Source: Candidatus Dojkabacteria bacterium
GTDB taxonomy: Bacteria > Patescibacteriota > Dojkabacteria > SC72 > JAFGCJ01
Assembly (NCBI GenBank): GCA_016932785.1
Contig: JAFGCJ010000002.1
Coordinates: 13,983-77,982, forward strand
DNA: 64,000 nucleotides
Direction: 5' to 3'
Both the position numbers and the translations under genes were made by a program. The notes below the pieces were generated by a model, which ran no database searches, was not told where the DNA came from, and saw only the letters and a list, made by a program, of their open reading frames with translations. Positions 2,563 through 41,779 of the stretch are shown here, piece after piece (position 1 is the stretch's first letter; the number at the start of each line of letters is the position of its first letter).

Positions 2563-5500
2563 CTACTCTATTCTAAAAGGCTCAATTATCTCTTTTACCT
2601 CGTCTGTAAGCTCGATACCACGTTTAAGCTGCATTGTTTTTACGTCATCTCCGTCGGGAATGGATATCATTACGGGTGTATCGCCGGGGTTTTCTTTTAA
2701 GGCTTGCTTAAGCCTCTTTATATCATCTTTGTTAGCGTTCGTAGGTATTCTCAAACTAAGTCCATCAGAAGACTTTGTAGCTTTGTCTAGATCAATGACT
2801 CTTAGCGAATCACAGATAATGCTTCTCGTTCCATCGCGAACATTAACCTTTCCTATAAATATGGTCGGAGTGCTCTCTTCAAGATTTTTTGAAAATTTTT
2901 CATACGTACTGGGAAAAAGAATTACCTCAATCTCACTGGTCTGATCTTCTATGAGGAGAAAGGCCATACGTTTATTTTCTTTCTTTGTCGAAATAGCTTT
3001 TATATTGGTTATAAGCCCGCATGCTTGTACGTGTGCATTTGGTTTCATCTGTTTTATTTCAGAAATATCCTTGACACCTATTGCTGAAAGGTATGACTTA
3101 ATTCTTCCAAGGGGATGGGCGGTAATATACATACCTAGAAGTTCCTTTTCCCATTCGATTTTGTTTGTGTCTGTGGCTGGCTCAACCTGTGGAAGTGGTG
3201 TCGGAGTAATCTTATGAGTCTGGCCTTCCTCTTTGCCCATAGAAAATATGTCAATCTGACCCTCTGCTTCAGAATTTTGTCTCTTCTTATAAGTCTCATG
3301 CATGGATGGGAGAGCGGCAAGTAGGCTGTTTCTTTCTCCAAAGTTGTCCAGAGCTCCTACTTGAACCAGATAGCTTATGGTTTTCTGGTTAATTTTATTA
3401 AGAGGAATTCGATACAGGAAGTCATCAAAGTTCTTGTATGGTCCGTCTTTGTCTCGAATATTTATGATAGTTCTGACTGCTGATTCACCGATATTCTTGA
3501 TTGCCGCCAGGCCAAATCTAATGTTGTATTTCTCTTCAATGGAAAAGCCAGATTTGCTTTTGTTTACGTCCGGAGGAAGGATGTTTATCCCTTTTCTGTT
3601 ACACTCCGCAATTATAAGAGAAATTTTATCGAAATCGTCGATTTCAGACTTGAGTAGTGCTGCCATAAATTCCACAGGATAATGAGTCTTTAGGTAGGCC
3701 GTTTGAAAAACGACTAGAGCATAGGATGCTGCATGTGGTTTGTTGAAAGCATAGTTTGTAAATGGAATGAATAGTTCAAACAGTGCCTCGGCTTTCTTTT
3801 CTGAGAGTCCGTTTTCCTCGAATCTCTTTAGTAGGTCGTCCTTCATATCAAACAATATCTCGGGTTTCTTTTTACCGGTAAACTTCCTCGCTTTGTCGGC
3901 TTCTGGCCAGGTCATTCCCGCAAGTGCTACTGTTGTCATCATTATATCCTCTTGATAAACAAGGAGTCCGTATGTAAGTGAGAGAAAGTCCTTCATTCTT
4001 GGATCAATGAAAGTAACAGATTTTTTCCCGGATTTTCTGTCGGCATATTCTTGTTGAAACTGGTTTGGTCCTGGTCTTACAAGAGCTAGAGATGCTGAGA
4101 TATCAAATATTGATTCTGGTCTAAGAACTTTCGCAGTGTTTTTCATGGGACCTGTCTCTAGCTGGAAGACCCCAAGAGTATCCAGATCTTTTATCAATTT
4201 GTATGTTGCTTCGTCATCAAGAGGGAATTTTGTTGGGTCAATATCAATTCCTCTTTCTTCTTTAATGATTTTTACTGATTCTGAAATAGTATCTAGACCG
4301 GTAAGACCAAGAAAGTCAACCTTGAGAAGCTTTAATTCCTCGAGTGAGTCCATTTCGTATTGAGTGATCATTCTGCCGTCTTCGCCTAGTGTTTTATCCC
4401 AGATTACAGGGCAATAGTCGACTATTGGTCCTGGCGTGACCAGGATTCCACATGCATGTATTCCCTGGCTTTTGGCGACACCCTCGATTTTTTTTGCGGT
4501 ATCTATCAATTTCGCCGCGTCGGGGTCTTGCTTGGTTAGCTCCTTTAATTCTGGAACTTCTCTTAGTGCCCTATCGATATCTACTTTTGCAAGTCCCTGT
4601 CCAGATGGCGGAATCAATTTTGCTATCCTGTCTACATATGCCAGGGGAAGTCCCAGTACTCGTCCGGCATCTCTTATGGATCCTCTGGCCTGCATTCTTC
4701 CAAAGGTAACAATATGGGCTACCGATTCTTTGCCATATAAATCTATAGCGTAGTTAATAACCTCTTCTCTTCTTGAGCTTGCTACGTCGATGTCAATATC
4801 CGGTGCTGACGGCCTTCCCTTGTAAAGGAACCGTTCAAAAGGAACCTGGAAATCCAGAGGATTTGCTGTGACTATACCTAGTATGTAGGATACGAAACTT
4901 CCCGCCGCTGATCCTCGAGTTGTGAAGGGAATATTGTTGTTCTTGATCCAATCTGTGAAATCCATGTTCATTACTATGTAGCTTGAGTACCCCATCTCAG
5001 AGATTACTTCAAATTCGTACTCTGCCCTCTTCTTCTCGTCTTTTGTTAATTCTCTATTGATTACTTTAGGAGCCCGCTGTTTTATGAGGTCGTACAGATA
5101 TTTGTCGTAGTCTTTTTTGTATGAATCCGGTATTGGAGGCTCAGGAAAAACCCAATCCTCAAATCCCAAATCAAAGACCTCGCACATATCTGTGACTTTC
5201 TGGGTGTTTTCTATGGCCTCAGGAATGTCTTGGAATAGCTCTTCCATTTGTTCAGGACTTTTGAGGTAGAATTCGTCTGTTTCCCTTGTCAGCCGCTGTT
5301 CATCCTCAAGTCTTTTCCCGGTATTTATGCACATAAGAACCTCTTGTGCCAGGGCATCCTCTTCTTTTATATAATGAACGTCGCAGGTTGCTATTAGTGG
5401 AAGCTCGAGATCTTCTGCTACCTGGATAAGGCCTTTATTTGCAACTTCCTGATCTTTCATACCGTTTCTCTGGAGTTCAACATAGAATCTATCCTTCCCA

Positions 5501-5991
5501 AATAGCTCCTTGTACCACTGTGCAATGTTGTGAGCATCTTTCAAATCTCCGCCGAAAACCTTTTTAGATATTTCGCCTGTGAGACATCCGGATAGTGCAA
5601 TCAAGCCGTCTTTATGTTTTTCCAGAAGCTCCTTGTCGATTCTAGGTTTGTAATAGAAACCGTCGATGTGTGATTTGGAAACAAGTTTGATCAGGTTGTC
5701 GTAGCCTTTTCTGTTTTCTGCAATTAGTACAAGATGATGAGGCTTTTCGTCTAGCTTTGCAATTTTTTGTGTGTGTTTTCTTGGTGCAACATATACTTCA
5801 CAACCTATGATCGGTTTGATATCTTCCTTCTGGCATTCTTTATGAAATTTGTGAGCACCGTACATTACTCCGTGATCGGAGATGCCGAGAGATTGCATGC
5901 CCAGTTCTTTTGCTTGAGGAATTAGCTTTTTAATTTTTGGTAATCCATCGAGTAAAGAGAACTCAGTGTGTACGTGCAGGTGGGTAAACAT
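2563..5991 (-). CDS. dnaE: DNA polymerase III alpha subunit (DnaE)
   Basis: N-terminal PHP domain (MFTHLHVHTEFSLLDG...GISDHG). 1142 aa with polymerase core and an OB-fold-containing C-terminal region. Confidence 0.9.
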   Translation of the reverse strand: MFTHLHVHTEFSLLDGLPKIKKLIPQAKELGMQSLGISDHGVMYGAHKFHKECQKEDIKPIIGCEVYVAPRKHTQKIAKLDEKPHHLVLIAENRKGYDNLIKLVSKSHIDGFYYKPRIDKELLEKHKDGLIALSGCLTGEISKKVFGGDLKDAHNIAQWYKELFGKDRFYVELQRNGMKDQEVANKGLIQVAEDLELPLIATCDVHYIKEEDALAQEVLMCINTGKRLEDEQRLTRETDEFYLKSPEQMEELFQDIPEAIENTQKVTDMCEVFDLGFEDWVFPEPPIPDSYKKDYDKYLYDLIKQRAPKVINRELTKDEKKRAEYEFEVISEMGYSSYIVMNMDFTDWIKNNNIPFTTRGSAAGSFVSYILGIVTANPLDFQVPFERFLYKGRPSAPDIDIDVASSRREEVINYAIDLYGKESVAHIVTFGRMQARGSIRDAGRVLGLPLAYVDRIAKLIPPSGQGLAKVDIDRALREVPELKELTKQDPDAAKLIDTAKKIEGVAKSQGIHACGILVTPGPIVDYCPVIWDKTLGEDGRMITQYEMDSLEELKLLKVDFLGLTGLDTISESVKIIKEERGIDIDPTKFPLDDEATYKLIKDLDTLGVFQLETGPMKNTAKVLRPESIFDISASLALVRPGPNQFQQEYADRKSGKKSVTFIDPRMKDFLSLTYGLLVYQEDIMMTTVALAGMTWPEADKARKFTGKKKPEILFDMKDDLLKRFEENGLSEKKAEALFELFIPFTNYAFNKPHAASYALVVFQTAYLKTHYPVEFMAALLKSEIDDFDKISLIIAECNRKGINILPPDVNKSKSGFSIEEKYNIRFGLAAIKNIGESAVRTIINIRDKDGPYKNFDDFLYRIPLNKINQKTISYLVQVGALDNFGERNSLLAALPSMHETYKKRQNSEAEGQIDIFSMGKEEGQTHKITPTPLPQVEPATDTNKIEWEKELLGMYITAHPLGRIKSYLSAIGVKDISEIKQMKPNAHVQACGLITNIKAISTKKENKRMAFLLIEDQTSEIEVILFPSTYEKFSKNLEESTPTIFIGKVNVRDGTRSIICDSLRVIDLDKATKSSDGLSLRIPTNANKDDIKRLKQALKENPGDTPVMISIPDGDDVKTMQLKRGIELTDEVKEIIEPFRIE

Positions 5992-28540: not shown

Positions 28541-29227
28541 GTGTTATTTTTACCCGCGATGGATACGAATTTCATGAAGAAAGTTGAACAGGATACTGTT
28601 AAAAGAAATCTGGATGTGAGGCCTGGCGATACAGTCAAGGTTCATATTCTTATTAAAGAGGCCGGTAAGGAGAGAGAGCAGATCTTTGAAGGTGTTGTTC
28701 TGTCTGTTAGCGGTTCCGGTGCGCGTAAGACTTTTACGGTGAGGAAAATTAGTCACGGTGTAGGTGTAGAGAAGATTTTTCCCGTTAATTCTCCTTTGAT
28801 AAAGAAGATTGATGTTATGGAAAGGGGTAATGCACGGCGATCCAAGCTTTACTATATGAGAAAGAGGATTGGTAAGAGATCTTTGGATGTAAATCTTAAA
28901 GAGGGTTTTGAAGCTATTATTGAAGAGGAAGAAGTTGAGGAAAAACCGGAGAAGAAAGACGAAGAGCCTGCAGAAGAAAAGGTCGAGAAGAAGGCAGAAG
29001 AACCGGCCGAGGAAAAGGTTGAGAAGAAGACTCCCGCAGCCGAGGAAAAAGTTCCTGAAGCAGAAGAAAAATCCGGTGATGCTAAAGAGAAGAAGGCTCC
29101 TGCAAAAGCCAAAGCAGAACCTGAGAAAAAAGACGAGAAAAAAGAACCCAAGGATAACAAGAAATCCGCTGAGAAAGGATCTGAAAAGGCCCCTAAAAAA
29201 GACCCCCCAAAAGAAGCCAAAAAGTAA
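28541..29227 (+). CDS. rplS: 50S ribosomal protein L19 with ~110 aa K/E-rich C-terminal extension
   Basis: L19 core VRPGDTVKVHILIKEAGKEREQIFEGVVLSV...TFTVRKISHGVGVEKIFPVNSPLIKKIDVMERGNARRSKLYYMRKR. The tail contains EEPAEEKVEKKA twice (tandem 30 nt DNA repeat) and further KE/AP repeats. The true start is probably an internal Met near 28559-28574. Confidence 0.75.
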   Translation: MLFLPAMDTNFMKKVEQDTVKRNLDVRPGDTVKVHILIKEAGKEREQIFEGVVLSVSGSGARKTFTVRKISHGVGVEKIFPVNSPLIKKIDVMERGNARRSKLYYMRKRIGKRSLDVNLKEGFEAIIEEEEVEEKPEKKDEEPAEEKVEKKAEEPAEEKVEKKTPAAEEKVPEAEEKSGDAKEKKAPAKAKAEPEKKDEKKEPKDNKKSAEKGSEKAPKKDPPKEAKK

Positions 29228-30407: not shown

Positions 30408-30483
30408 GGGGCGCTAGCTCATCCGGTAGAGCAACTGGCTTTTAACCAGTAGGTGCGGGGTTCGAGTCCCCGGCGCCTCACCA
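30408..30483 (+). tRNA. tRNA-Lys (anticodon UUU)
   Basis: Manual fold: acceptor GGGGCGC/GCGCCTC, D arm GCTC-ATCCGGTA-GAGC, anticodon stem ACTGG/CCAGT with loop CTTTTAA (anticodon TTT), T arm CGGGG-TTCGAGT-CCCCG, discriminator A, encoded CCA. Coordinates are +/-1 nt. Confidence 0.85.
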
Positions 30484-30518
30484 CTTTTTATCGAGTTTTT
30501 TGGATTTTTCTGCTGTTA

Positions 30519-31322
30519 ATGTTATCTAAATATGCAATAAATAAGCAAAAGGGGAATATTGGAGAGGCATTTGTACAGTTTTTCTTATCTAGATTTGCGC
30601 TTGTTCATAAGGTGGATGGTGGAAATGATCTTGGTAATGATTTCTTCTGTGAACTATTTTTGGAGGAATATCCTACGAACATACTATTTTATGTACAGGT
30701 AAAGCTTTGGTGCTCTGAGCCTAGGGTTAAAGAATCTACAAAAGATTATTGGAGAAAGGCTCAGATACCTGTGTATTTATTCTGGGTGAAATGTGCAGGT
30801 AAAGAATTCGATGATATTGTTTTGGACGATGCTTTAGATGAAGCTTCATGGGTAGTTAAATATAAAAGAATGACAGCTGAGTTGCACAAAGAAAAGGCTG
30901 AAGGATTTGAAGATTTTGATTTGTTGAAATTTAAGAGAGATTTAATGATTGATTATGCTAGGTCGATGTTTATACGTGGTTTCACCCCTGTTTTTGATGC
31001 GGGAATGTTTTTCACAGAAAAGGAGAGAAGTAATCTTGACCTGGCTAGATTTCAAAATCCCGCGAGGAGCCTCATAAAGGAAGATCAATACGTAGAGACA
31101 GTACTTGATGAAAGCTGGTCTCATTTTATCTCTGTAGCACATTTGTTACATAGAATGTACAAAGAACTTAAGAAAGAAGAATATTTGAAAGGTGCTGAAG
31201 ACTGCATTAATCTTGCCGAAACATTATATGGAATATCTAATGTCACAGATGTTGATCATGTCTTGGCCTATTTATGGAGCGTAAAGAAAGAAATACGTAA
31301 TTCACGAAATCAGTTAGGTTAA
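30519..31322 (+). CDS. DUF4365-type PD-(D/E)xK nuclease-fold protein
   Basis: GNIGEAFVQFFLSRFALVHKVDGGNDLGNDFFCELF...ILFYVQVK reproduces the DUF4365 pattern (iGE...D.GxD...E...hVQVK, a restriction-endonuclease-like D/E-K core). The ORF-track GTG start at 30453 would overlap the tRNA-Lys 3' end, so the internal Met at about 30519 is preferred. Confidence 0.5.
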   Translation: MLSKYAINKQKGNIGEAFVQFFLSRFALVHKVDGGNDLGNDFFCELFLEEYPTNILFYVQVKLWCSEPRVKESTKDYWRKAQIPVYLFWVKCAGKEFDDIVLDDALDEASWVVKYKRMTAELHKEKAEGFEDFDLLKFKRDLMIDYARSMFIRGFTPVFDAGMFFTEKERSNLDLARFQNPARSLIKEDQYVETVLDESWSHFISVAHLLHRMYKELKKEEYLKGAEDCINLAETLYGISNVTDVDHVLAYLWSVKKEIRNSRNQLG

Positions 31323-31477
31323 AGGGTGCCTAATAAGTATTGATTGTCAATAATTTTCCTTGAAGCCAGATGAGAGAGCAATTCCTCACAGCAATGTTTA
31401 AAGCGATAGGCTGGGATATCAATAATGAACAAGGTTATGCAGAACAGTATAAAGAGGTTGTTCATGGAGACAAAGAG

Positions 31478-33049
31478 TTAATCCATATATTCTTTCAAAT
31501 ATTTTCTTAACCTCTTATCCACAACATACACATAAGTTCCACGAATGCCCCGTGTAAGCAATGTTTTGTAAATATTTTTAATGTAGCTTTCAAGCTCGTT
31601 CGGATCAGAAATAGCTCTTTTACCATTAAAATCAAGATATTTACTTTTGTCTATAACAATACTCTTTTTATCCTTGTCATATGAGATTTCCGGCCCAATA
31701 ATAACTCCAGCATAGTTAAGGTCATACCCCTGAATTGTATGGATGCAACCAACCTCATTTACGGCATTCTCTGAGTTGACCCAATCCTTTGTAACGCTGT
31801 TCCATCTTAACTTAACGTCGTCAATTTCTATATCGTAATCAATAGACTCATCTTTTTTGGTTTTCCATTCCCATGAGTACCCAGCTAATAGTCTTGAAAG
31901 TCCGATATTCTTGTCTTGTTCTTTTATGGCATCAACTAGTTCTCTTATATCGCCGAATAGCTTAAGTTCATATTCGTCGAATTTGACCTTCTCTTTCTGC
32001 TCGACATTGAGTATTCGTCTTATATATTCGATATAGTCCTGTCCGCCCCTCACTCTCATTTGGGAAATCAACGCGTATTCTTTCATCTTGTACTTTCTTA
32101 TATGGTGCTCCCTTATATCTGCTGGCTTAATGCTCTGATTTTTGTCGTAGAAAAGAACTTGATGTTTGGAGGAGTTAATAATCCAGTCTAGCTCAGTCCC
32201 CTCTTCTTTTTTGAGGCCTAAGGTTTTGTTTATCCTATCGAAGTCTCTGTAGTTAGTTAGGTTTACTCTTCTTTGTAATCTGTGCGCTTCATCAACAATT
32301 AATATGTCGTAATCGAATTTGATGACGTCGTTTGGTCCTATGACCATACCCGGATTTAATCCTTTTACTGATTTGAAGACTTTTTTTAGTGTTTTCCTTA
32401 GGGAAGTCATAGGAATTACCAAACCAATCCTGAGGTCTTGTGCCCAATCCTGTTCATATAGATATTTCATTAAGTATACCGCCACTATTGTCTTTCCGGT
32501 TCCTGGCTCTCCTGAAACAATACTGGTTTGGTGGCTGTCTTTTTTAATACTTTCCGTTATCTCCTGAACAACATTAAGCTGGTCTTCGCTAAGGCTTTTA
32601 TAGGGAGAATATTTAAACAAGTCACTATTTTCTATCTGAACAAGAGCTTGATTAGCCAGTTCTCTCTTTAGTAGTTCTTTCCATATAACTTCAAATTTTG
32701 CTTGATAACGTTCTCGGTCATAGTAGTCCGATTCTTTAACACCTGAATTACCGTTCTGGAGTAGATATTTGCCATCGCCGGACATGTATTTTATTAAGGA
32801 AGATTCAATGTCTAGAGTAGCCGATTTATTGTACTCGTCATCAGCAATTACATGTAAATTCTTCAGCCTTGCTCTTTCAGGATTTTCTATTTGTTGTTTT
32901 GCCCTATTATAAGCACTTACTGATTCTCCAACATATGCTTCTCTTCCATCTTCGATTATGTATACAATCGGCCAATTTAAGCCAAATCTGTAATCCTTAA
33001 TTTTCTGGATTGTGCTTGGAGTAAAACTGTATTTGGTTATCTCATACAT
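31478..33049 (-). CDS. GIY-YIG nuclease-like N-terminal domain fused to DUF2075 (Schlafen-helicase-like) P-loop NTPase
   Basis: N-terminal WPIVYIIEDGREAYVGESVSAYNRAKQ (GIY-YIG-like). Walker A IVSGEPGTGKT. Walker B/DEAH-like ILIVDEAHRL. The C-terminal region is typical of DUF2075 proteins. Confidence 0.6.
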   Translation of the reverse strand: MYEITKYSFTPSTIQKIKDYRFGLNWPIVYIIEDGREAYVGESVSAYNRAKQQIENPERARLKNLHVIADDEYNKSATLDIESSLIKYMSGDGKYLLQNGNSGVKESDYYDRERYQAKFEVIWKELLKRELANQALVQIENSDLFKYSPYKSLSEDQLNVVQEITESIKKDSHQTSIVSGEPGTGKTIVAVYLMKYLYEQDWAQDLRIGLVIPMTSLRKTLKKVFKSVKGLNPGMVIGPNDVIKFDYDILIVDEAHRLQRRVNLTNYRDFDRINKTLGLKKEEGTELDWIINSSKHQVLFYDKNQSIKPADIREHHIRKYKMKEYALISQMRVRGGQDYIEYIRRILNVEQKEKVKFDEYELKLFGDIRELVDAIKEQDKNIGLSRLLAGYSWEWKTKKDESIDYDIEIDDVKLRWNSVTKDWVNSENAVNEVGCIHTIQGYDLNYAGVIIGPEISYDKDKKSIVIDKSKYLDFNGKRAISDPNELESYIKNIYKTLLTRGIRGTYVYVVDKRLRKYLKEYMD

Positions 33050-33066
33050 AATTTTCGATCAGTTTT

Positions 33067-33423
33067 TTAGAGTTTTGTATATTTTTTGCTTGTTCCCTTA
33101 GCCTTCTCTACCGGGTATTTTTTGCTGTTTTGTTCGATTTTTTTTTGAACGATTTCGTCAATGTTAACATCGAGTGTTTCTGCTAGCAGTGCGATATATA
33201 TTAATATGTCGGCTAATTCCTCGATCACTTCTTTCTTGTCATACTTGGAGGTCCATTGAAAGCATTCTAGTAATTCTCCTGCCTCTATTGATATTGATTT
33301 GGCAAGATTTTCTTCTGAATGGAACTGTTTCCAATCTCTATCATCTCTAAATTTAATGAGTTTCTCTATGATTTCTCTTTTCATTAAAATTTCATTAAGA
33401 ATTGTTTTTTTTAATTCTAGCAT
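33067..33423 (-). CDS. MazG-like nucleoside triphosphate pyrophosphohydrolase
   Basis: EENLAKSISIEAGELLECFQW...EELADILIYIALLAETLDVNIDEIV carries the EExxE/D metal-binding helices of all-alpha NTP-PPase (MazG/HisE) proteins. 118 aa. Tail-to-head with the DUF2075 gene, 17 nt gap. Confidence 0.65.
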   Translation of the reverse strand: MLELKKTILNEILMKREIIEKLIKFRDDRDWKQFHSEENLAKSISIEAGELLECFQWTSKYDKKEVIEELADILIYIALLAETLDVNIDEIVQKKIEQNSKKYPVEKAKGTSKKYTKL

Positions 33424-33518
33424 AATGTGTGGGTTTACTAAACAAAGGAGATACAGTAATGAAGGTCTATCAGTTGTAATAGGTTAGCAAATATTCTCTC
33501 AACATGGTTCGATTTCTT

Positions 33519-33570
33519 TCCCCAGTTCCTACCCCTACCCCATCCCCACCCTCACCTCCGCTCCCCGCCC
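33519..33570. repeat. C-rich homopyrimidine tract; strong G-quadruplex motif on the minus strand
   Basis: Plus strand: CCCCAGTTCCTACCCCTACCCCATCCCCACCCTCACCTCCGCTCCCCGCCC. Minus strand: GGGCGGGGAGCGGAGGTGAGGGTGGGGATGGGGTAGGGGTAGG, with at least four G3-4 runs separated by 1-2 nt loops. Located in the divergent intergenic region between the MazG-like gene and the CDS at 33625. Confidence 0.6.
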
Positions 33571-33624
33571 AAATATTTTTCTATGCTACAATGAAGTTGT
33601 ACTAACCTAATCGCTTCACCCACC

Positions 33625-33939
33625 ATGAACAAAATCACTCTCGGTATTATCTGCGGACTAGCCTTTGGAATTCTCGATGTTCTCATAATGATCCCTATGC
33701 CTGAAAAAGATAAACGTAAAAAGACTGAAGCCATGATTGGAGCTTTCCTCGAGCGATTCATGGTCGGATTGATAATTCCGAATTTAAATCTCGGAACCGG
33801 ATACGTAGTTACTGGTATCATTGTTGGACTTGGGCTTAGTGTCCCTACTGCGGTTATTACTCGGGCTTATGCCCCTATCATCGGGATCGGCGTTGTTGGC
33901 GGTTTGATTATTGGGCTAATTTCTAATGCTGTAATATAA
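33625..33939 (+). CDS. Small glycine-zipper integral membrane protein
   Basis: 104 aa. Three hydrophobic segments rich in GxxxG (GIICGLAFGILDVLIMI; GIIVGLGLSV; GIGVVGGLIIGLI). Confidence 0.4.
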   Translation: MNKITLGIICGLAFGILDVLIMIPMPEKDKRKKTEAMIGAFLERFMVGLIIPNLNLGTGYVVTGIIVGLGLSVPTAVITRAYAPIIGIGVVGGLIIGLISNAVI

Positions 33940-33951
33940 CACGGTAATATA

Positions 33952-34209
33952 ATGCGGCAATATTCAAAGTTTACAGACAACAAGGATCCTGTAGTCGCTG
34001 TACTCCTTGATCGACTGTTTCAGGTTCTTGATGAAATCACGGGCGGTGAATATGAAGTGGAAGGTAAAAAACCTATCTCACTTATTGATGGAAAAGCTCT
34101 GGTGGATCGGACTCTAAATCATTTCTCGGAGATTGATACGAAGTATCAAAAGATAATTGGGGTTAAGGAGAAACAAGTAGCCATTGGTGACAAATTTGAA
34201 TTTGTATAG
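33952..34209 (+). CDS. Small hypothetical protein (85 aa)
   Basis: Compact ORF immediately after the membrane protein. No motif recognised. Confidence 0.3.
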   Translation: MRQYSKFTDNKDPVVAVLLDRLFQVLDEITGGEYEVEGKKPISLIDGKALVDRTLNHFSEIDTKYQKIIGVKEKQVAIGDKFEFV

Positions 34210-34235
34210 TACTCTAATTTAGTAGTATATAGATA

Positions 34236-34970
34236 GTGCAAAAATCTTACAAAAACCTAGCAAAATACTACGATCTCTGCTTTCAGCAAAAAGATTACCA
34301 GAAGGAGGTAGATTTCATATTGGAACTTGTTGATAAATATGGCATCAATAAAGAATCAATCCTAGATGTTGGTTGTGGGACCGGGACACATCTTTGCCTT
34401 CTGAAAAACCATTTTGACAATCTCTATGGCGTCGATTTAAACAAGGAAATTCTTGAAATCGCAAAAACCAAGGTTCCTGGCGCTCATTTTCTCAATGCAG
34501 GAATGTCCGACTTTAAGATTAAAGAGAAGTTTGATGTCATTACCTCTTTATATTCAGTTTTTAACTACAATAAAGATGTGGATTCTGCCACTAAGACGCT
34601 GCAGAATTTCCATAAGCACTTACAGGAAAAAGGAGTTGTAATAATTGCTCTGTATAACGAAAGAACTACTGATAAGAAAATTTCCCTTCATGTGGGTAAA
34701 GATGACGATACAAAAGTGGCAAAGATAGATCAGTTCAGGTATATACCTAAGGACAAAACTGTGAAATCCGAACATTTAGTTCTGATTAAAGACAATGAAG
34801 AGATAGATTTTGAAGTTGAGGATGATGATATTTATAGGATTTTTGATTTTGATGAAATAGAGAGTATGGTAAAGGAGTCAGGATTTTCGAATAGCGAGAT
34901 ATATGATAGGTTTTCGTTCGATAAAGCGGCAAATAAGTCTAAATTTCCTGTGTTGGTGTTAAGGAGGTGA
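34236..34970 (+). CDS. Class I SAM-dependent methyltransferase (TylM1/DesVI-like small-molecule N-methyltransferase family)
   Basis: YYDLCF...ILDVGCGTGTHLCLL (SAM motif I), GVDLNKEILEIAK, DVITSLYSVFNY. The overall layout matches sugar N,N-dimethyltransferase-like MTases. Confidence 0.6.
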   Translation: MQKSYKNLAKYYDLCFQQKDYQKEVDFILELVDKYGINKESILDVGCGTGTHLCLLKNHFDNLYGVDLNKEILEIAKTKVPGAHFLNAGMSDFKIKEKFDVITSLYSVFNYNKDVDSATKTLQNFHKHLQEKGVVIIALYNERTTDKKISLHVGKDDDTKVAKIDQFRYIPKDKTVKSEHLVLIKDNEEIDFEVEDDDIYRIFDFDEIESMVKESGFSNSEIYDRFSFDKAANKSKFPVLVLRR

Positions 34971-34979
34971 GTATGCACA

Positions 34980-35125
34980 TAACTCATCCCTCTCAAGATG
35001 TGTAATATCAAGGGCTTGGTTACAGAGGGCCCGTGCCTTTTGAGCAGTTATCCCTTTAAGTAGTTGTGAATATGGTAGTTGAAGATCAGCTATAGGTGAC
35101 GTGAATTAATTATATCATATGTAGC
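34980..35125 (-). pseudogene. Degenerate duplicate of the 5' end (first ~45 codons plus ~25 bp upstream) of the gene at 36876-37697
   Basis: About 88% nucleotide identity to 37560-37725 over ~145 bp. Start codon ATG is mutated to ACG. Reading frame is retained for ~45 codons (TSPIADLQLPYSQLLKGITAQKARALCNQALDITHLERDEL) before ending. Confidence 0.55.
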
Positions 35126-35316
35126 GAGTACATATTATAGGATAACAAAGTCTTTTGCTGATGGAAGTTCCTCTTTTGTGGTATAATGCACCAGTTCGAA
35201 ACAAAGTAGGACTTTTGTGAATTTGTTTGTCTCCCCTTCAGAGTAAATCTTAATTCCCAGGTAACTATTTTGGCATGACCGGAATTACCGGGAATTAAAT
35301 TCTACATAATAATACA

Positions 35317-36513
35317 GTGAGTAAATACAATTATAACCACAGAAATCGTGGATACAATGACTATGCAAAGCGAAACGGAAGACGTCGTGGGGGGCGTAAT
35401 AGCTTTCATGGGAGTAAGATTGATCCCAAAAAATATGTCTCAAGTGCTGAGGCTGGACCATCGTGCTCTATTTATCAGGATGACTGCAAATTTGAAGATT
35501 TCAACGTTGCTTCGGTGATCCAGTCGAATATCAGAGCTAAGAATTTCAGCCAACCGACAAAGATACAAGCCCAGGCAATTCCATATGTACTTTCCGGTAA
35601 GGATATTTTGGGATTAGCGGGAACTGGATCTGGTAAAACTGCGGCTTTTCTCGTTCCGATGATTGATAAGGCTCTCAAAGATCGTGGTCAGAAGATCTTG
35701 ATTGTCACTCCAACAAGAGAGCTTGCCGCCCAGATTAGAGATGAATTTGTTACTTTCTCAAAAGGAACGAATCTCAGGTCGGCCGTTGTTATCGGAGGTG
35801 CAAGTATGGGGAAACAAATTTCGGTATTGAAGCAAAACCCTCAGTTTGTTATTGCTACTCCTGGAAGATTGAAAGATCTTTCTCAAAGGGGGGTGATTCA
35901 TTTTGATGTATTTAACAATATTGTACTTGATGAGGTGGATAGGATGCTCGATATGGGTTTTGTCCATGAGATAAAGCAAGTTATTTCAAAATTGAGCCAA
36001 AACAAGCAGTCGATGTTTTTTTCAGCTACTATGAATCCTAAGATCGAGGAAATTGCCAGATCGTTACTTAGGGATCCTGTGAAAATTCAGGTTGAGAGGC
36101 TTTCTTTAAAGAGAAACGTGGAACAGAATGTCGTTAAAGTTAGACCAGAAGAGAAAATTGAGAAGCTCCATGATCTGCTGAATGGCGAAGATTTTCACAA
36201 AGTTCTGATCTTTTCGAGGACTAAATATGGCTCTGATAAACTTTCAAAGACGCTTTTAAAAAGAGGCTTTTGTGTAGATTCGATACATGGTGGCAAAACA
36301 CAGTCAAGAAGAGAAAGAGTAATACGTAAGTTTCGTCAGGATGAGATTAAGATTCTCGTTGCAACAGATGTTGCTGCAAGAGGATTGGATATTGACGATA
36401 TTACCCATGTTATAAACTACGACGAGCCGAATTGTTATGATGACTATATTCACAGGATCGGCCGTACTGGCAGAGCCGGGAAAAAAGGTAACGCGCTCAC
36501 ATTTGTTGGGTAG
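35317..36513 (+). CDS. DEAD-box ATP-dependent RNA helicase (motif II variant DEVD)
   Basis: Q motif, Walker A AGTGSGKT, PTRELA, VLDEVDRMLDMGF, SAT, HRIGRTGRAG. R/G-rich N-terminus. Confidence 0.8.
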   Translation: MSKYNYNHRNRGYNDYAKRNGRRRGGRNSFHGSKIDPKKYVSSAEAGPSCSIYQDDCKFEDFNVASVIQSNIRAKNFSQPTKIQAQAIPYVLSGKDILGLAGTGSGKTAAFLVPMIDKALKDRGQKILIVTPTRELAAQIRDEFVTFSKGTNLRSAVVIGGASMGKQISVLKQNPQFVIATPGRLKDLSQRGVIHFDVFNNIVLDEVDRMLDMGFVHEIKQVISKLSQNKQSMFFSATMNPKIEEIARSLLRDPVKIQVERLSLKRNVEQNVVKVRPEEKIEKLHDLLNGEDFHKVLIFSRTKYGSDKLSKTLLKRGFCVDSIHGGKTQSRRERVIRKFRQDEIKILVATDVAARGLDIDDITHVINYDEPNCYDDYIHRIGRTGRAGKKGNALTFVG

Positions 36514-36875: not shown

Positions 36876-37697
36876 CTATTCAAACTCTCTCTCATAGGGT
36901 CTATTTTGCCTGATCCAGACTTCGGCCTCTCCGTCTCTGGTCAGGGGATCCTCGTTTAGAACAGCTTCAGCTGTAAGAGCGAGGTAATCCCTTACTCCCT
37001 CCGGCAGTACTTCACCTTCTGTTCGACAATCAAATTCCACTGAAAAATCTGCGTCAGCATCAAGAGTTGTAATGACTTCTGTTTTAATGCCGTCAATAGG
37101 AATTCCCAGTATTTTAGAAAATCTTGTTGCTACCTCTGTAGTGACGCGTTGAAATTGTTCGGTTTCTTTCTGTGATTCAGTCATATGTTCTGGACTAGAA
37201 ATTTCTCCGCTTAATAAATGAGCATTTGGAGAGAGAAAAAGTCTGATCTGGGGATTTCTTACTGCTGAGCCCCATCTACGCATTTCATCTTCTGTGAGTG
37301 TAGGAACTGGGTCTGGTGCGTCTTTTCTCCTTAGCATCCAAGCGGTTTCATCCCATACTCTAATGACGGTTCCTAGACCTGGGATTCCAGATTCCTTACA
37401 TAATTCCTGTATTTGTGTCCCAGCTGCGCTGATTTGTTCTTCGTTGGGACGAAAATCAACTCCTTCTTCATAAGTTCCGACACCCGCGGTTAGTTCTATT
37501 GCAAGAACTGTTCCGTCAGTTGCCTCTTTAGCTCCTTTCCCGACTCGTACCTCTCGATCATCTGGATCTAGCGTGTCTATTCCTAGCTCACGATGAGTTA
37601 TATCCAGGGCTTGGTCGCAGAGGGCCCGTGCCTGTTGTGGAGTTACCCCTTTAGGGAGTTGTGAATCTGGTAGTTGAAGATCAGCTATAGGTGACAT
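36876..37697 (-). CDS. Hypothetical protein (273 aa), locally GC-rich (about 47%)
   Basis: No recognisable motif. Codon usage is distinctly G/C-richer than surrounding genes. Its 5' end is duplicated as the pseudogene at 34980-35125. Confidence 0.45.
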   Translation of the reverse strand: MSPIADLQLPDSQLPKGVTPQQARALCDQALDITHRELGIDTLDPDDREVRVGKGAKEATDGTVLAIELTAGVGTYEEGVDFRPNEEQISAAGTQIQELCKESGIPGLGTVIRVWDETAWMLRRKDAPDPVPTLTEDEMRRWGSAVRNPQIRLFLSPNAHLLSGEISSPEHMTESQKETEQFQRVTTEVATRFSKILGIPIDGIKTEVITTLDADADFSVEFDCRTEGEVLPEGVRDYLALTAEAVLNEDPLTRDGEAEVWIRQNRPYEREFE

Positions 37698-37821
37698 GGT
37701 GCAATTATATCATAGGAGATAGAGTTTATGTTATGGGATAGTAGGGTTTTGGTTTGCGTGGGTTTGTCTTGTGGGGCGTGGCTGGTGTGTTGTAATTTTG
37801 CTTTCCACTATTTCGTATGTC

Positions 37822-40372: not shown

Positions 40373-41779
40373 TTGATTTCAAAAATGCAAGACTTGAAAG
40401 ATAAAATTGCAGACTTTTTAGAGAACGTTCCAATTTCGACAGAGCAGCCAGTTTCTTCTTCATCAATAGGCAAGGATTTGAAAGGTGAGACACTCCATTC
40501 TGTGATTGTCTTTTTACAGTTATTTAACTGTGTAGAAATTAAATCCAAAGGAAAGAAAGCGGGAGAATGGAAAGTTAAGTCGGTATCGCCTACCGCCGAT
40601 TATTTTCTCAGAAGTCTTGCGAGATACATCAGAAAAGAAAATTCCTTGATCAGCTCGTGGGCCAAACTTGGGACAACAGACGAGAAGGGTTCAATATTTG
40701 ATTGGGGGACCAAATATCTTGCTGAAATGGAGAAGCGGCGGACAGTGAAATTTAGTGATAAGTATCCAACGAGGCTGGTTTCAGTTTCACAAGCTATTAT
40801 AAAGGCCCGTGTAAAAGGATATGAGGAACCTCTTTTTCTTGTCCAGCTTGATGAAAAGATAGATCAGTACCAGTTCATTGGAGGCAGGAAAATTGGTTCT
40901 GATAAGGATCTTAAGGCAACTATTGAGAGGGAACTAAGTGAGGAGTTGTATAAGAATGACATGGTAAAAAAACATAATTACACGCTGGAACCTTTAGCTG
41001 AGAATATGAGGCATTATGAGATTTCTCCGACATTCGGAGCCTTTACTGAATATACCTTTTCTATCTATCAGATCATGTTTGCTGAGGAGGATATCAAGCT
41101 TGGCGGAGGAGACATATGGGTCTCTGCAAAAGAATTAGAAGCGGAGCAATCTTATGACGGAAAGCATATTAGGTTAACCTTCGAGCCGGAGAAAGTTATA
41201 GGAAAGACATATGATGAACTCCCCTTGTCCACTGTTCGGGTACAGCCGGAGTTTGCTAGAAAAAAGGCTGCCTCAAAAGATTCCACAGCGAGTGCCCAGA
41301 AGATACAGGATCTTATTTCTGAAGGTGAAAGTACTAATCTTGAATTTAAGGCTACAATTAGGTGGGATAAGAGGAGAAATCAGGTCAACAAAGATTTAGA
41401 GAAGGTTGTTGTCAAAGAAATATCGGCTTTTCTAAATTCCAAAGGAGGAACTCTTTTAATAGGTGTTGACGATGATGGGACTGTAATCGGATTAGGTGAT
41501 GATATCAAGACCCTGCGAAAACAGAATCTGGATGGTTATATGCAGGCTGTAGTTAGTCTTATTTCGGATAACATAGGTGTTCAATATTGCTCTAATGTGG
41601 ACGTTTCTTTTGAAAAAATAAATGGTGACGACATTTGCGTTCTTTCTATACGTAAAGCCTCGGGACCTGTGTTTGTGAAGAATAATGATAAAAAAGAGTT
41701 CTATGTTAGAAGGTCAAATACCTCTAGGCTTCTCGATAGTGAGGAAACTTATAACTATATCCTGCATACTTGGGGCTAG
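40373..41779 (+). CDS. Fusion protein: N-terminal region with degenerate Nudix-like box plus C-terminal AlbA_2 (Schlafen-box-like) putative DNA-binding domain
   Basis: C-terminus ESTNLEFKATIRW...VVKEISAFLNSKGGTLLIGVDDDGTVIGL matches the AlbA_2 signature (E..LEFK ... AFaNt.GG.lliGV.d.G.i.Gl). Mid-region YQFIGGRKIGSDKDLKATIERELSEELY resembles the Nudix box (GG...REL.EE) with the catalytic Glu positions substituted. Confidence 0.5.
   Translation: MISKMQDLKDKIADFLENVPISTEQPVSSSSIGKDLKGETLHSVIVFLQLFNCVEIKSKGKKAGEWKVKSVSPTADYFLRSLARYIRKENSLISSWAKLGTTDEKGSIFDWGTKYLAEMEKRRTVKFSDKYPTRLVSVSQAIIKARVKGYEEPLFLVQLDEKIDQYQFIGGRKIGSDKDLKATIERELSEELYKNDMVKKHNYTLEPLAENMRHYEISPTFGAFTEYTFSIYQIMFAEEDIKLGGGDIWVSAKELEAEQSYDGKHIRLTFEPEKVIGKTYDELPLSTVRVQPEFARKKAASKDSTASAQKIQDLISEGESTNLEFKATIRWDKRRNQVNKDLEKVVVKEISAFLNSKGGTLLIGVDDDGTVIGLGDDIKTLRKQNLDGYMQAVVSLISDNIGVQYCSNVDVSFEKINGDDICVLSIRKASGPVFVKNNDKKEFYVRRSNTSRLLDSEETYNYILHTWG

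Follow-up and report, generated by a model that had tools for sequence, protein, structure and literature searches.

A DCTPP1-like pyrophosphatase gene and a GIY-YIG nuclease-helicase gene form a conserved pair in a variable region beside tRNA-Lys in Candidatus Dojkabacteria

A 64-kb stretch of DNA from an uncultured Candidatus Dojkabacteria bacterium, a member of the candidate phyla radiation (CPR), was analysed and is referred to here as the window. Between its tRNA-Lys(UUU) gene and a gene for a DEAD-box RNA helicase lies a block of genes, designated A to F, together with the remains of others. Genes C and B are the main subject of this report. Gene C (33067–33423, minus strand; 118 aa) is the first gene of a C–B operon, with only 17 nt between its stop codon and the start codon of gene B (31478–33049, minus strand; 523 aa). 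An original prediction had proposed that the nuclease, ATPase and pyrophosphatase genes of the block (A, B and C) form a defence module within an island at the tRNA. The features that it listed, among them the open reading frames (ORFs) and the tRNA, are all present where it placed them; its grouping of the genes is another matter, as described below.

Gene B encodes an N-terminal nuclease domain (residues 1–130) and a superfamily 1B (SF1B) helicase of the DUF2075/SLFN-g3 type (residues 150–523). The protein has a full-length Pfam match to PF09848 (SLFN-g3_helicase, formerly DUF2075; 2e-66, 224.9 bits against a cut-off of 24, profile positions 3–354 of 354). In an alignment of 36 family sequences, the Walker A motif G180-PGTGKT187 (G180 and P182–K186) and the Walker B DEAH box D253-E-A-H256 (D253, E254 and H256) are invariant or nearly so. 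Full-length gene B had no match when its sequence was searched against the PDB. The full-length structural model (predicted local distance difference test, pLDDT, 87) has as its top Foldseek matches the SF1B helicases Dna2, RecD, Upf1, nsp13, RecD2 and SLFN14.

The N-terminal domain of the window's gene B does not match PF01541 at E≤1, whereas 19 of 21 homologue N-domains match this profile on their own (best 1.8e-6). A PDB search with a profile of the domain gave chance matches only. The GIY-YIG residue set Y30, Y39, G41, R49, E82 and N99 is invariant across the 36 aligned sequences, and the model of the domain has the GIY-YIG alpha/beta fold. Its structure matches include T4 EndoII, R.Eco29kI, I-TevI and the UvrC N-domain, with lower scores for PD-T4-3 and an SLX1 homologue; the top match is the N-domain of GrxS16, which is a GIY-YIG domain too. 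The assignment of this domain as a GIY-YIG nuclease is secure because of the profile matches of the homologues, the invariant catalytic residues and the fold.

Another ORF of 523 aa, at 903–2474 on the minus strand, was considered as a second copy of gene B and rejected. It encodes UvrC, and the equal length is coincidental. UvrC is also a GIY-YIG protein, so the genome has a canonical GIY-YIG repair nuclease besides gene B. This gene lies at the start of the window, beside that for DNA polymerase III alpha (2563–5991, minus strand).

Gene C encodes an all-alpha (deoxy)nucleoside triphosphate pyrophosphatase of the DCTPP1/RS21-C6 type, with a match to Pfam PF12643 (MazG-like; 1.6e-19, 70.4 bits against a cut-off of 27). 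Its alignments with an archaeal pyrophosphatase (PDB 4qgp, 9e-21) and with mouse dCTP pyrophosphatase 1/RS21-C6 (DCTPP1; 5e-16) run the full length of the protein. The metal-ligand motifs ExxE...ExxD of these proteins are retained as EAGELLE and EELADILIY. DCTPP1 is a nucleotide-pool-sanitising enzyme that hydrolyses deoxycytidine triphosphate (dCTP) and 5-modified dCTPs. By analogy, the substrate of gene C is most likely dCTP or a 5-modified dCTP. Gene C differs from DCTPP1 and 4qgp in being a bacterial protein encoded in an operon with a nuclease-helicase. The catalytic residues are intact in both B and C, and the domain assignments of the two proteins are established.

The linkage of C and B was surveyed in every homologous locus that could be reached, with the loci split at 34% identity. 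A MazG-like gene and a GIY-YIG/DUF2075 gene adjoin in all 13 of the loci with 34–71% identity and in one of the three at 28–29%. The MazG-like gene is directly upstream of the B homologue, with a gap of 1–10 nt, in two other Dojkabacteria genomes (L001 and L004) and five metagenomic loci (L006, L008, L011, L015 and L122). The same order and range of spacing are seen on the plasmids p419 of Bacillus mycoides and pIS56-233 of B. thuringiensis, where B is 34–36% identical and the partner is annotated as a 'nucleotide pyrophosphohydrolase', in an unverified 'Bacteriophage sp.' record and in the IMG/VR viral contigs L111–L113. The order is inverted, B then C, with the genes 2–6 nt apart, in L114 (3188–5031) and L115 (3520–5363), which are IMG/VR viral contigs of another group than L111–L113. 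It is also inverted in L119 (3390–5443), a Ligilactobacillus salivarius plasmid on which B is 28% identical and has as neighbours an integrase and a restriction-modification system of type I.

B homologues without a MazG-like partner were found on a Fructilactobacillus plasmid and a B. cereus plasmid, both at 29% identity. The first of these, in F. sanfranciscensis pLS1 (L118, 205–2984), immediately follows genes for cytosine deaminase and cytosine permease. Genes for an HNH endonuclease and for a DNA adenine methylase are also close by. This arrangement is possibly coincidental.

The genes that flank C–B vary almost everywhere between loci, and the pair occupies unrelated positions in other Dojkabacteria genomes. 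In L004 (JAFGMG010000005.1, 5690–10167), C–B and five small ORFs form a 4.6-kb segment between infC and thrS. These genes are normally contiguous in the canonical order thrS-infC-rpmI-rplT-pheST, and C–B therefore interrupts the cluster. The adjacency of C and B is thus kept despite differing flanks, deep divergence and inversion of the gene order. This is strong evidence that C and B are functionally coupled. The C–B operon is the sole conserved unit of the interval.

A complete HMMER search across 1.84 billion cluster representatives assigns 476 clusters to the gene B family at E≤1e-30, and 2413 at E≤1e-3. It is found on 106 plasmids, 69 of them from Bacillus. It is rare in viruses, being present in 5 of 2.9 million IMG/VR contigs and in 4 phage records, and PHROGs has no phage family for B, or for A, D or E. 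Approximately one third of the closest homologues (38 of 120) have an extra C-terminal Peptidase_S24 domain, an example being in L008 (6001–8031). In the homologue P0048 this domain (residues 550–663) contains the serine of a GDSM motif, a lysine and a Cys-Gly dipeptide. The dipeptide sits at the position of the UmuD cleavage site, in a LexA/UmuD-type arrangement. The presence of such a domain in so many of the closest relatives suggests activation by filaments of RecA on single-stranded DNA (ssDNA).

The neighbours of C–B at other loci are of several types. Genes typical of defence or of mobile elements include the toxin-antitoxin genes RelB/ParE and PemK, Fic and RhuM, as well as HNH endonucleases and zeta toxin on Bacillus plasmids, in addition to the restriction-modification system and integrase of L119. 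Genes for DNA repair are found too: L008 has glycosylases of the HhH-GPD and Pur_DNA_glyco families, and L006 has a DNA_alkylation protein. Several contexts consist of plain housekeeping genes.

Gene A (30519–31322, plus strand; 267 aa) is the DUF4365 protein of the original prediction. A start at GTG 30453, which would overlap the tRNA, was considered and rejected in favour of the true start at ATG 30519. The match of gene A to DUF4365 (PF14280) is 20.2 bits, under the cut-off of 24.3, while all but one of its 53 non-self homologues (35–51% identity) carry PF14280. Residues E16, D37, D41, E45 and Q60-V-K62 are invariant in 24 sequences of the family, which fits a PD-(D/E)xK-type active site. 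No DUF2075 or MazG-like neighbour was found in three contexts of gene A homologues, where the adjoining genes are unrelated, in one case with the homologue between serS and smc. Likewise, no gene A homologue is present in any of the C–B loci compared. Gene A is a separate, stand-alone predicted nuclease of restriction-like type, independent of C–B.

Between A and B is a fragment of a type IIG restriction-modification gene (31364–31465, plus strand). It matches positions 32–65 of the 1011 in the PADLOC REase_MTase_IIG profile (E=1.5e-5) and is truncated on both sides, with in-frame stop codons just upstream and a 3' end that is ~10 bp short of the stop codon of gene B. No full-length type IIG nuclease-methyltransferase ORF is present, 34 codons being all that remains. 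The stop codons and the truncation indicate that a type IIG gene was once located between A and B and has been destroyed.

These results bear on the proposal that A, B and C together make up a defence system of three components, integrated at the tRNA. In its favour, the genes lie side by side in the window, and each encodes a nucleic-acid or nucleotide-hydrolase fold. Against this, A-family genes are never beside B or C homologues and no C–B locus has an A homologue; A and B converge, with the dead restriction fragment between them; and neither an integrase nor an att repeat is present. A three-component system is very improbable, and the proposal is already largely refuted by the comparison of neighbourhoods. 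In that comparison, co-occurrence of C and B was found, and that of A, and of D, E and F, with C–B was not.

A second possibility is that C–B is a selfish mobile cassette, in which the GIY-YIG domain would serve as an endonuclease of homing type and carry the pair into new sites without benefit to the host. GIY-YIG domains are typical of homing endonucleases, and I-TevI is among the structure matches of the gene B domain. The pair is found in many unrelated sites without an integrase, splits thrS from infC in L004, and in the window is within ~10 bp of a truncated restriction gene. However, homing endonucleases do not combine a large helicase, here one whose ATPase motifs are invariant, with a conserved enzyme partner. 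Neither repeats at the flanks nor a conserved target sequence were observed, all three enzymatic modules are under strong purifying selection, and just 5 of the 2.9 million viral contigs carry the family. A purely selfish cassette is improbable, although less so than a three-component system.

Divergent from gene C, across a 201-bp intergenic region, are genes D (33625–33939, plus strand; 104 aa), E (33952–34209, plus strand; 85 aa) and F (34236–34970, plus strand; 244 aa), separated by spacers of 12 and 26 nt. Gene D encodes a hydrophobic membrane protein. Neither D nor E has a Pfam or PHROG match. Gene F encodes a class I S-adenosylmethionine (SAM) methyltransferase, and the expected resemblance to TylM1 was borne out. 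Its best matches are the sugar N,N-dimethyltransferases DesVI (3bxo, 3.6e-19) and TylM1 (3pfg, 2e-16), so that by similarity it is a small-molecule methyltransferase. A role for gene F as the DNA methyltransferase partner of a restriction system was rejected because of these matches. None of D, E and F is found beside C–B homologues elsewhere, and the D-E-F operon is unrelated cargo.

The intergenic region between C and D contains a tract (33518–33572) whose plus strand is C-rich and whose minus strand is G-rich. The G-quadruplex (G4) motif noted previously is present in it at 33532–33551 and is the only one found in the 64 kb by a regular-expression scan. A conserved role for the tract in the regulation of C–B was rejected, as it is absent upstream of the MazG-like genes in 8 homologous loci.

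The degenerate gene fragment that had been placed at the right end of the block is real. It lies at 34992–35144 on the minus strand, is cut off 22 bp from the stop codon of gene F and is a truncated pseudo-copy of the 5' end of the gene at 36876–37697. The segment is a direct copy of 37587–37740 with 82–86% identity (82% over 154 bp by blastn, 86% as repeat family D1; tblastn, 81% over 36 aa, E=2.5e-13). It covers codons 2–37 and ~45 bp of the upstream region, the start codon having been lost. The type IIG relic and this truncated paralogue show that DNA has repeatedly been gained and lost at the site. The two copies of the repeat bracket the DEAD-box helicase gene and the gene at 36876–37697.

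The variable region is bounded on the left by tRNA-Lys(UUU) (30408–30483, plus strand; ARAGORN, Rfam tRNA 64.8 bits) and on the right by the pseudo-copy, beyond which is the housekeeping gene for a CshA/RhlE-like DEAD-box RNA helicase (35317–36513). Left of the tRNA are housekeeping genes for iPGM, an HAD hydrolase, ribosomal protein bL19, RNase HII and YraN/UPF0102. The bL19 protein (28541–29227, plus strand) has a Lys/Glu/Pro-rich C-terminal extension of ~110 residues past its Pfam L19 domain (residues 11–113). The GC content of the interval, 0.365, is the lowest among windows of the same size in the 64 kb, for which the mean is 0.397. Ranked from the lowest among 63 ORFs, C is 1st, A 3rd, F 4th and B 10th. 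The deviation in base composition is real but modest. An Rfam scan of the interval matched the tRNA-Lys alone, and a promoter and terminator scan returned fewer sites than in shuffled sequence.

The original description of housekeeping genes to the left of the tRNA and an accessory, variable block with nuclease, helicase and nucleotide-hydrolase genes to the right is upheld by the low GC content, the type IIG relic and the truncated paralogue. The unrelated positions of C–B in other Dojkabacteria genomes, and the absence of the block's genes after the tRNA in relatives that retain the rnhB–tRNA-Lys linkage, agree with it. Integration at the tRNA is not supported. The prediction had itself noted the lack of an integrase and of a repeat of the tRNA end, and domain and sequence searches agree with it. 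No ORF in 30.4–35.3 kb has an integrase domain, and the 3' end of tRNA-Lys (20 and 26 nt) has only its self-match in the window at ≤3 mismatches, with no att-like repeat. It is on these two grounds that the status of an integrative island is unsupported, and the region is better described as variable and accessory, lying beside a tRNA, than as a demonstrated integrative island. The stretch from 30.5 to 35.1 kb is a low-GC composite of independent pieces, not a single system.

The search for a relative with the site empty covered several of the flanking genes. RNase HII had no match from a close relative among 185,579 species genomes, the best being 46–50% identical, and a metagenome scan with YraN returned one unrelated high-GC contig only. 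The closest orthologues of the DEAD-box helicase are 61–70% identical with no common synteny, and no empty-site comparator was found among them. The linkage of rnhB with tRNA-Lys(UUU) is kept in two Dojkabacteria contigs and one Saccharibacteria contig (L021, 10706–12233; L023; L056, 10663–13745). In these distant relatives gatA is located 2 bp to 1.6 kb after the tRNA, and none of the island genes is present. The 64-kb window does not contain gatA.

The nearest characterised relatives of gene B are Nhi of Staphylococcus epidermidis (SERP2475; Bari et al. 2022) and Nhi-like (Millman et al. 2022), which are proven anti-phage proteins that act singly and combine a nuclease with a DUF2075 helicase. 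As in gene B, a single polypeptide carries an N-terminal nuclease and a C-terminal DUF2075 helicase of SF1 type. The nuclease of Nhi and Nhi-like is of the PD-(D/E)xK type, whereas that of gene B is GIY-YIG, and they are described without a partner gene, in contrast to gene B with its conserved MazG-like partner. The match to the PADLOC Nhi model is confined to the helicase core (gene B residues 141–380, profile positions 172–375 of 470, E=9.6e-12). The GIY-YIG domain and this restricted match place gene B outside the Nhi/Nhi-like family, although it probably works like its members.

Other PADLOC models each match one domain of gene B only: PDC-S41 at residues 288–509 (1e-10), AbiO at residues 143–381 (9e-10) and PDC-S14 in the N-domain (8e-4). 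These are different proteins from gene B, and the PDC entries are themselves candidates. The GIY-YIG proteins UvrC, T4 EndoII, R.Eco29kI, I-TevI and PD-T4-3 have the catalytic Y, Y, R, E and N in common with gene B at 13–22% identity, but none is fused to a DUF2075 helicase. The PDB listing of PD-T4-3 gives it as an anti-phage GIY-YIG nuclease specific for 5-hydroxymethylcytosine. Group III Schlafens (SLFN5/11/13/14), which have roles in virus restriction and in the DNA-damage response, carry a helicase domain of the same Pfam family, PF09848, and SLFN14 is among the structure matches. They have an N-terminal RNase core of AlbA_2 type and no pyrophosphatase partner, in contrast to the GIY-YIG domain and partner C of gene B.

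A protein of 468 aa, encoded at 40373–41779 on the plus strand, 7 kb from gene B, has a C-terminal Schlafen AlbA_2 domain (PF04326, 3e-21). This domain corresponds to the other half of the eukaryotic Schlafens, the helicase of gene B being of Schlafen type.

For gene C, a functional analogy may be drawn with the nucleotide-depletion defences dCTP deaminase and dGTPase, which remove deoxynucleotides in infection (Tal et al. 2022). Those enzymes differ in fold and chemistry and act alone, while C is paired with a nuclease-helicase. A literature search did not find DUF2075 together with MazG, the current DefenseFinder models being outside the comparison, and a GIY-YIG-DUF2075 fusion is mentioned once, in passing. 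The C–B pair is therefore probably undescribed, a variant within the nuclease-helicase (nuclease-NTPase) systems.

The function favoured here for C–B, with about an even chance of being correct, is that of a nuclease-helicase defence cassette of the Nhi kind, directed against viruses or plasmids. This is consistent with the linkage of C and B, with the domains and intact catalytic residues of both proteins, with the S24 domain of P0048, with the type IIG relic and the DUF4365 nuclease in the window, with the toxin and restriction-modification neighbours at other C–B loci, with the matches to Nhi, PDC-S41 and AbiO over the helicase part of gene B, and with the proven anti-phage activity of Nhi and Nhi-like. 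Several points weigh against it. No complete PADLOC system was obtained in the interval. Gene B has no PD-(D/E)xK domain and is not Nhi. It is also unusually well conserved for a defence gene, the best non-self match being 71% identical compared with 64–70% for the adjoining housekeeping DEAD-box helicase. Several C–B loci are in plain housekeeping contexts, and there is no close relative showing the site empty. The glycosylase and alkylation-repair neighbours and the S24 fusions fit a role in the repair of DNA damage equally well.

Such a role is a serious rival to defence, although on balance it is considered rather unlikely. C–B would then be a DNA-damage-response or repair module in which C cleans damaged or non-canonical deoxynucleoside triphosphates and B excises or processes lesions or stalled forks in the manner of UvrC or Dna2, with the S24-fused variants regulated by RecA like UmuD and LexA. 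The very high sequence conservation across phyla and the retention of C–B in small CPR genomes are in its favour. So too are the UmuD-like Cys-Gly site of the S24 fusions, the repair-type neighbours of L008 and L006, the position of Dna2, RecD and the UvrC N-domain among the best structure matches of gene B, and the sanitising function of DCTPP1. It is less easily reconciled with the patchy and location-variable occurrence of C–B even among Dojkabacteria and with its presence on Bacillus and Ligilactobacillus plasmids beside restriction-modification, toxin and HNH genes. In the window, moreover, a restriction-enzyme relic and a restriction-like nuclease adjoin the pair, and UvrC is already encoded.

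If C–B is a defence cassette, the helicase of gene B would load on replicating or foreign DNA and translocate 5'–3', delivering the GIY-YIG domain, which would nick or cut the DNA. The pyrophosphatase would act on the nucleotide pool, either starving the invader of (modified) precursors or blocking their incorporation. In relatives with an S24 domain, RecA-ssDNA filaments may act as the switch. An involvement of modified cytosine is an attractive idea because escape from Nhi-like arises through loss of a phage DNA methylase, DUF2075 NTPases have been noted beside modification-dependent restriction enzymes, and the partner is DCTPP1-like. In its fullest form, which is put forward tentatively and falls somewhat short of an even chance, the proposal is of an undescribed, widespread two-component anti-phage or anti-plasmid system, with hundreds of clusters at 50% identity that range from CPR bacteria to Bacillus megaplasmids. 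It would couple the removal of (modified) deoxycytidine nucleotides with helicase-driven DNA cleavage, gated in a large subfamily by RecA-stimulated self-cleavage of the S24 domain. The Schlafen helicase module would in that case have a bacterial relative whose nuclease and partner are both new.

Nhi, Nhi-like and the eukaryotic Schlafens restrict viruses, yet how they recognise their targets is still unclear. The near-constant DCTPP1-like partner of gene B makes a link between the nucleotide pool and DNA cleavage directly testable, and the LexA/UmuD-type switch in many relatives points to RecA-ssDNA filaments as the trigger. The copies on Bacillus plasmids come from cultivable hosts. Should C–B prove to be a repair module, it would represent a new SOS-linked nuclease-helicase pathway; should it be a defence cassette, it would add a system to the small known repertoire of the CPR bacteria.

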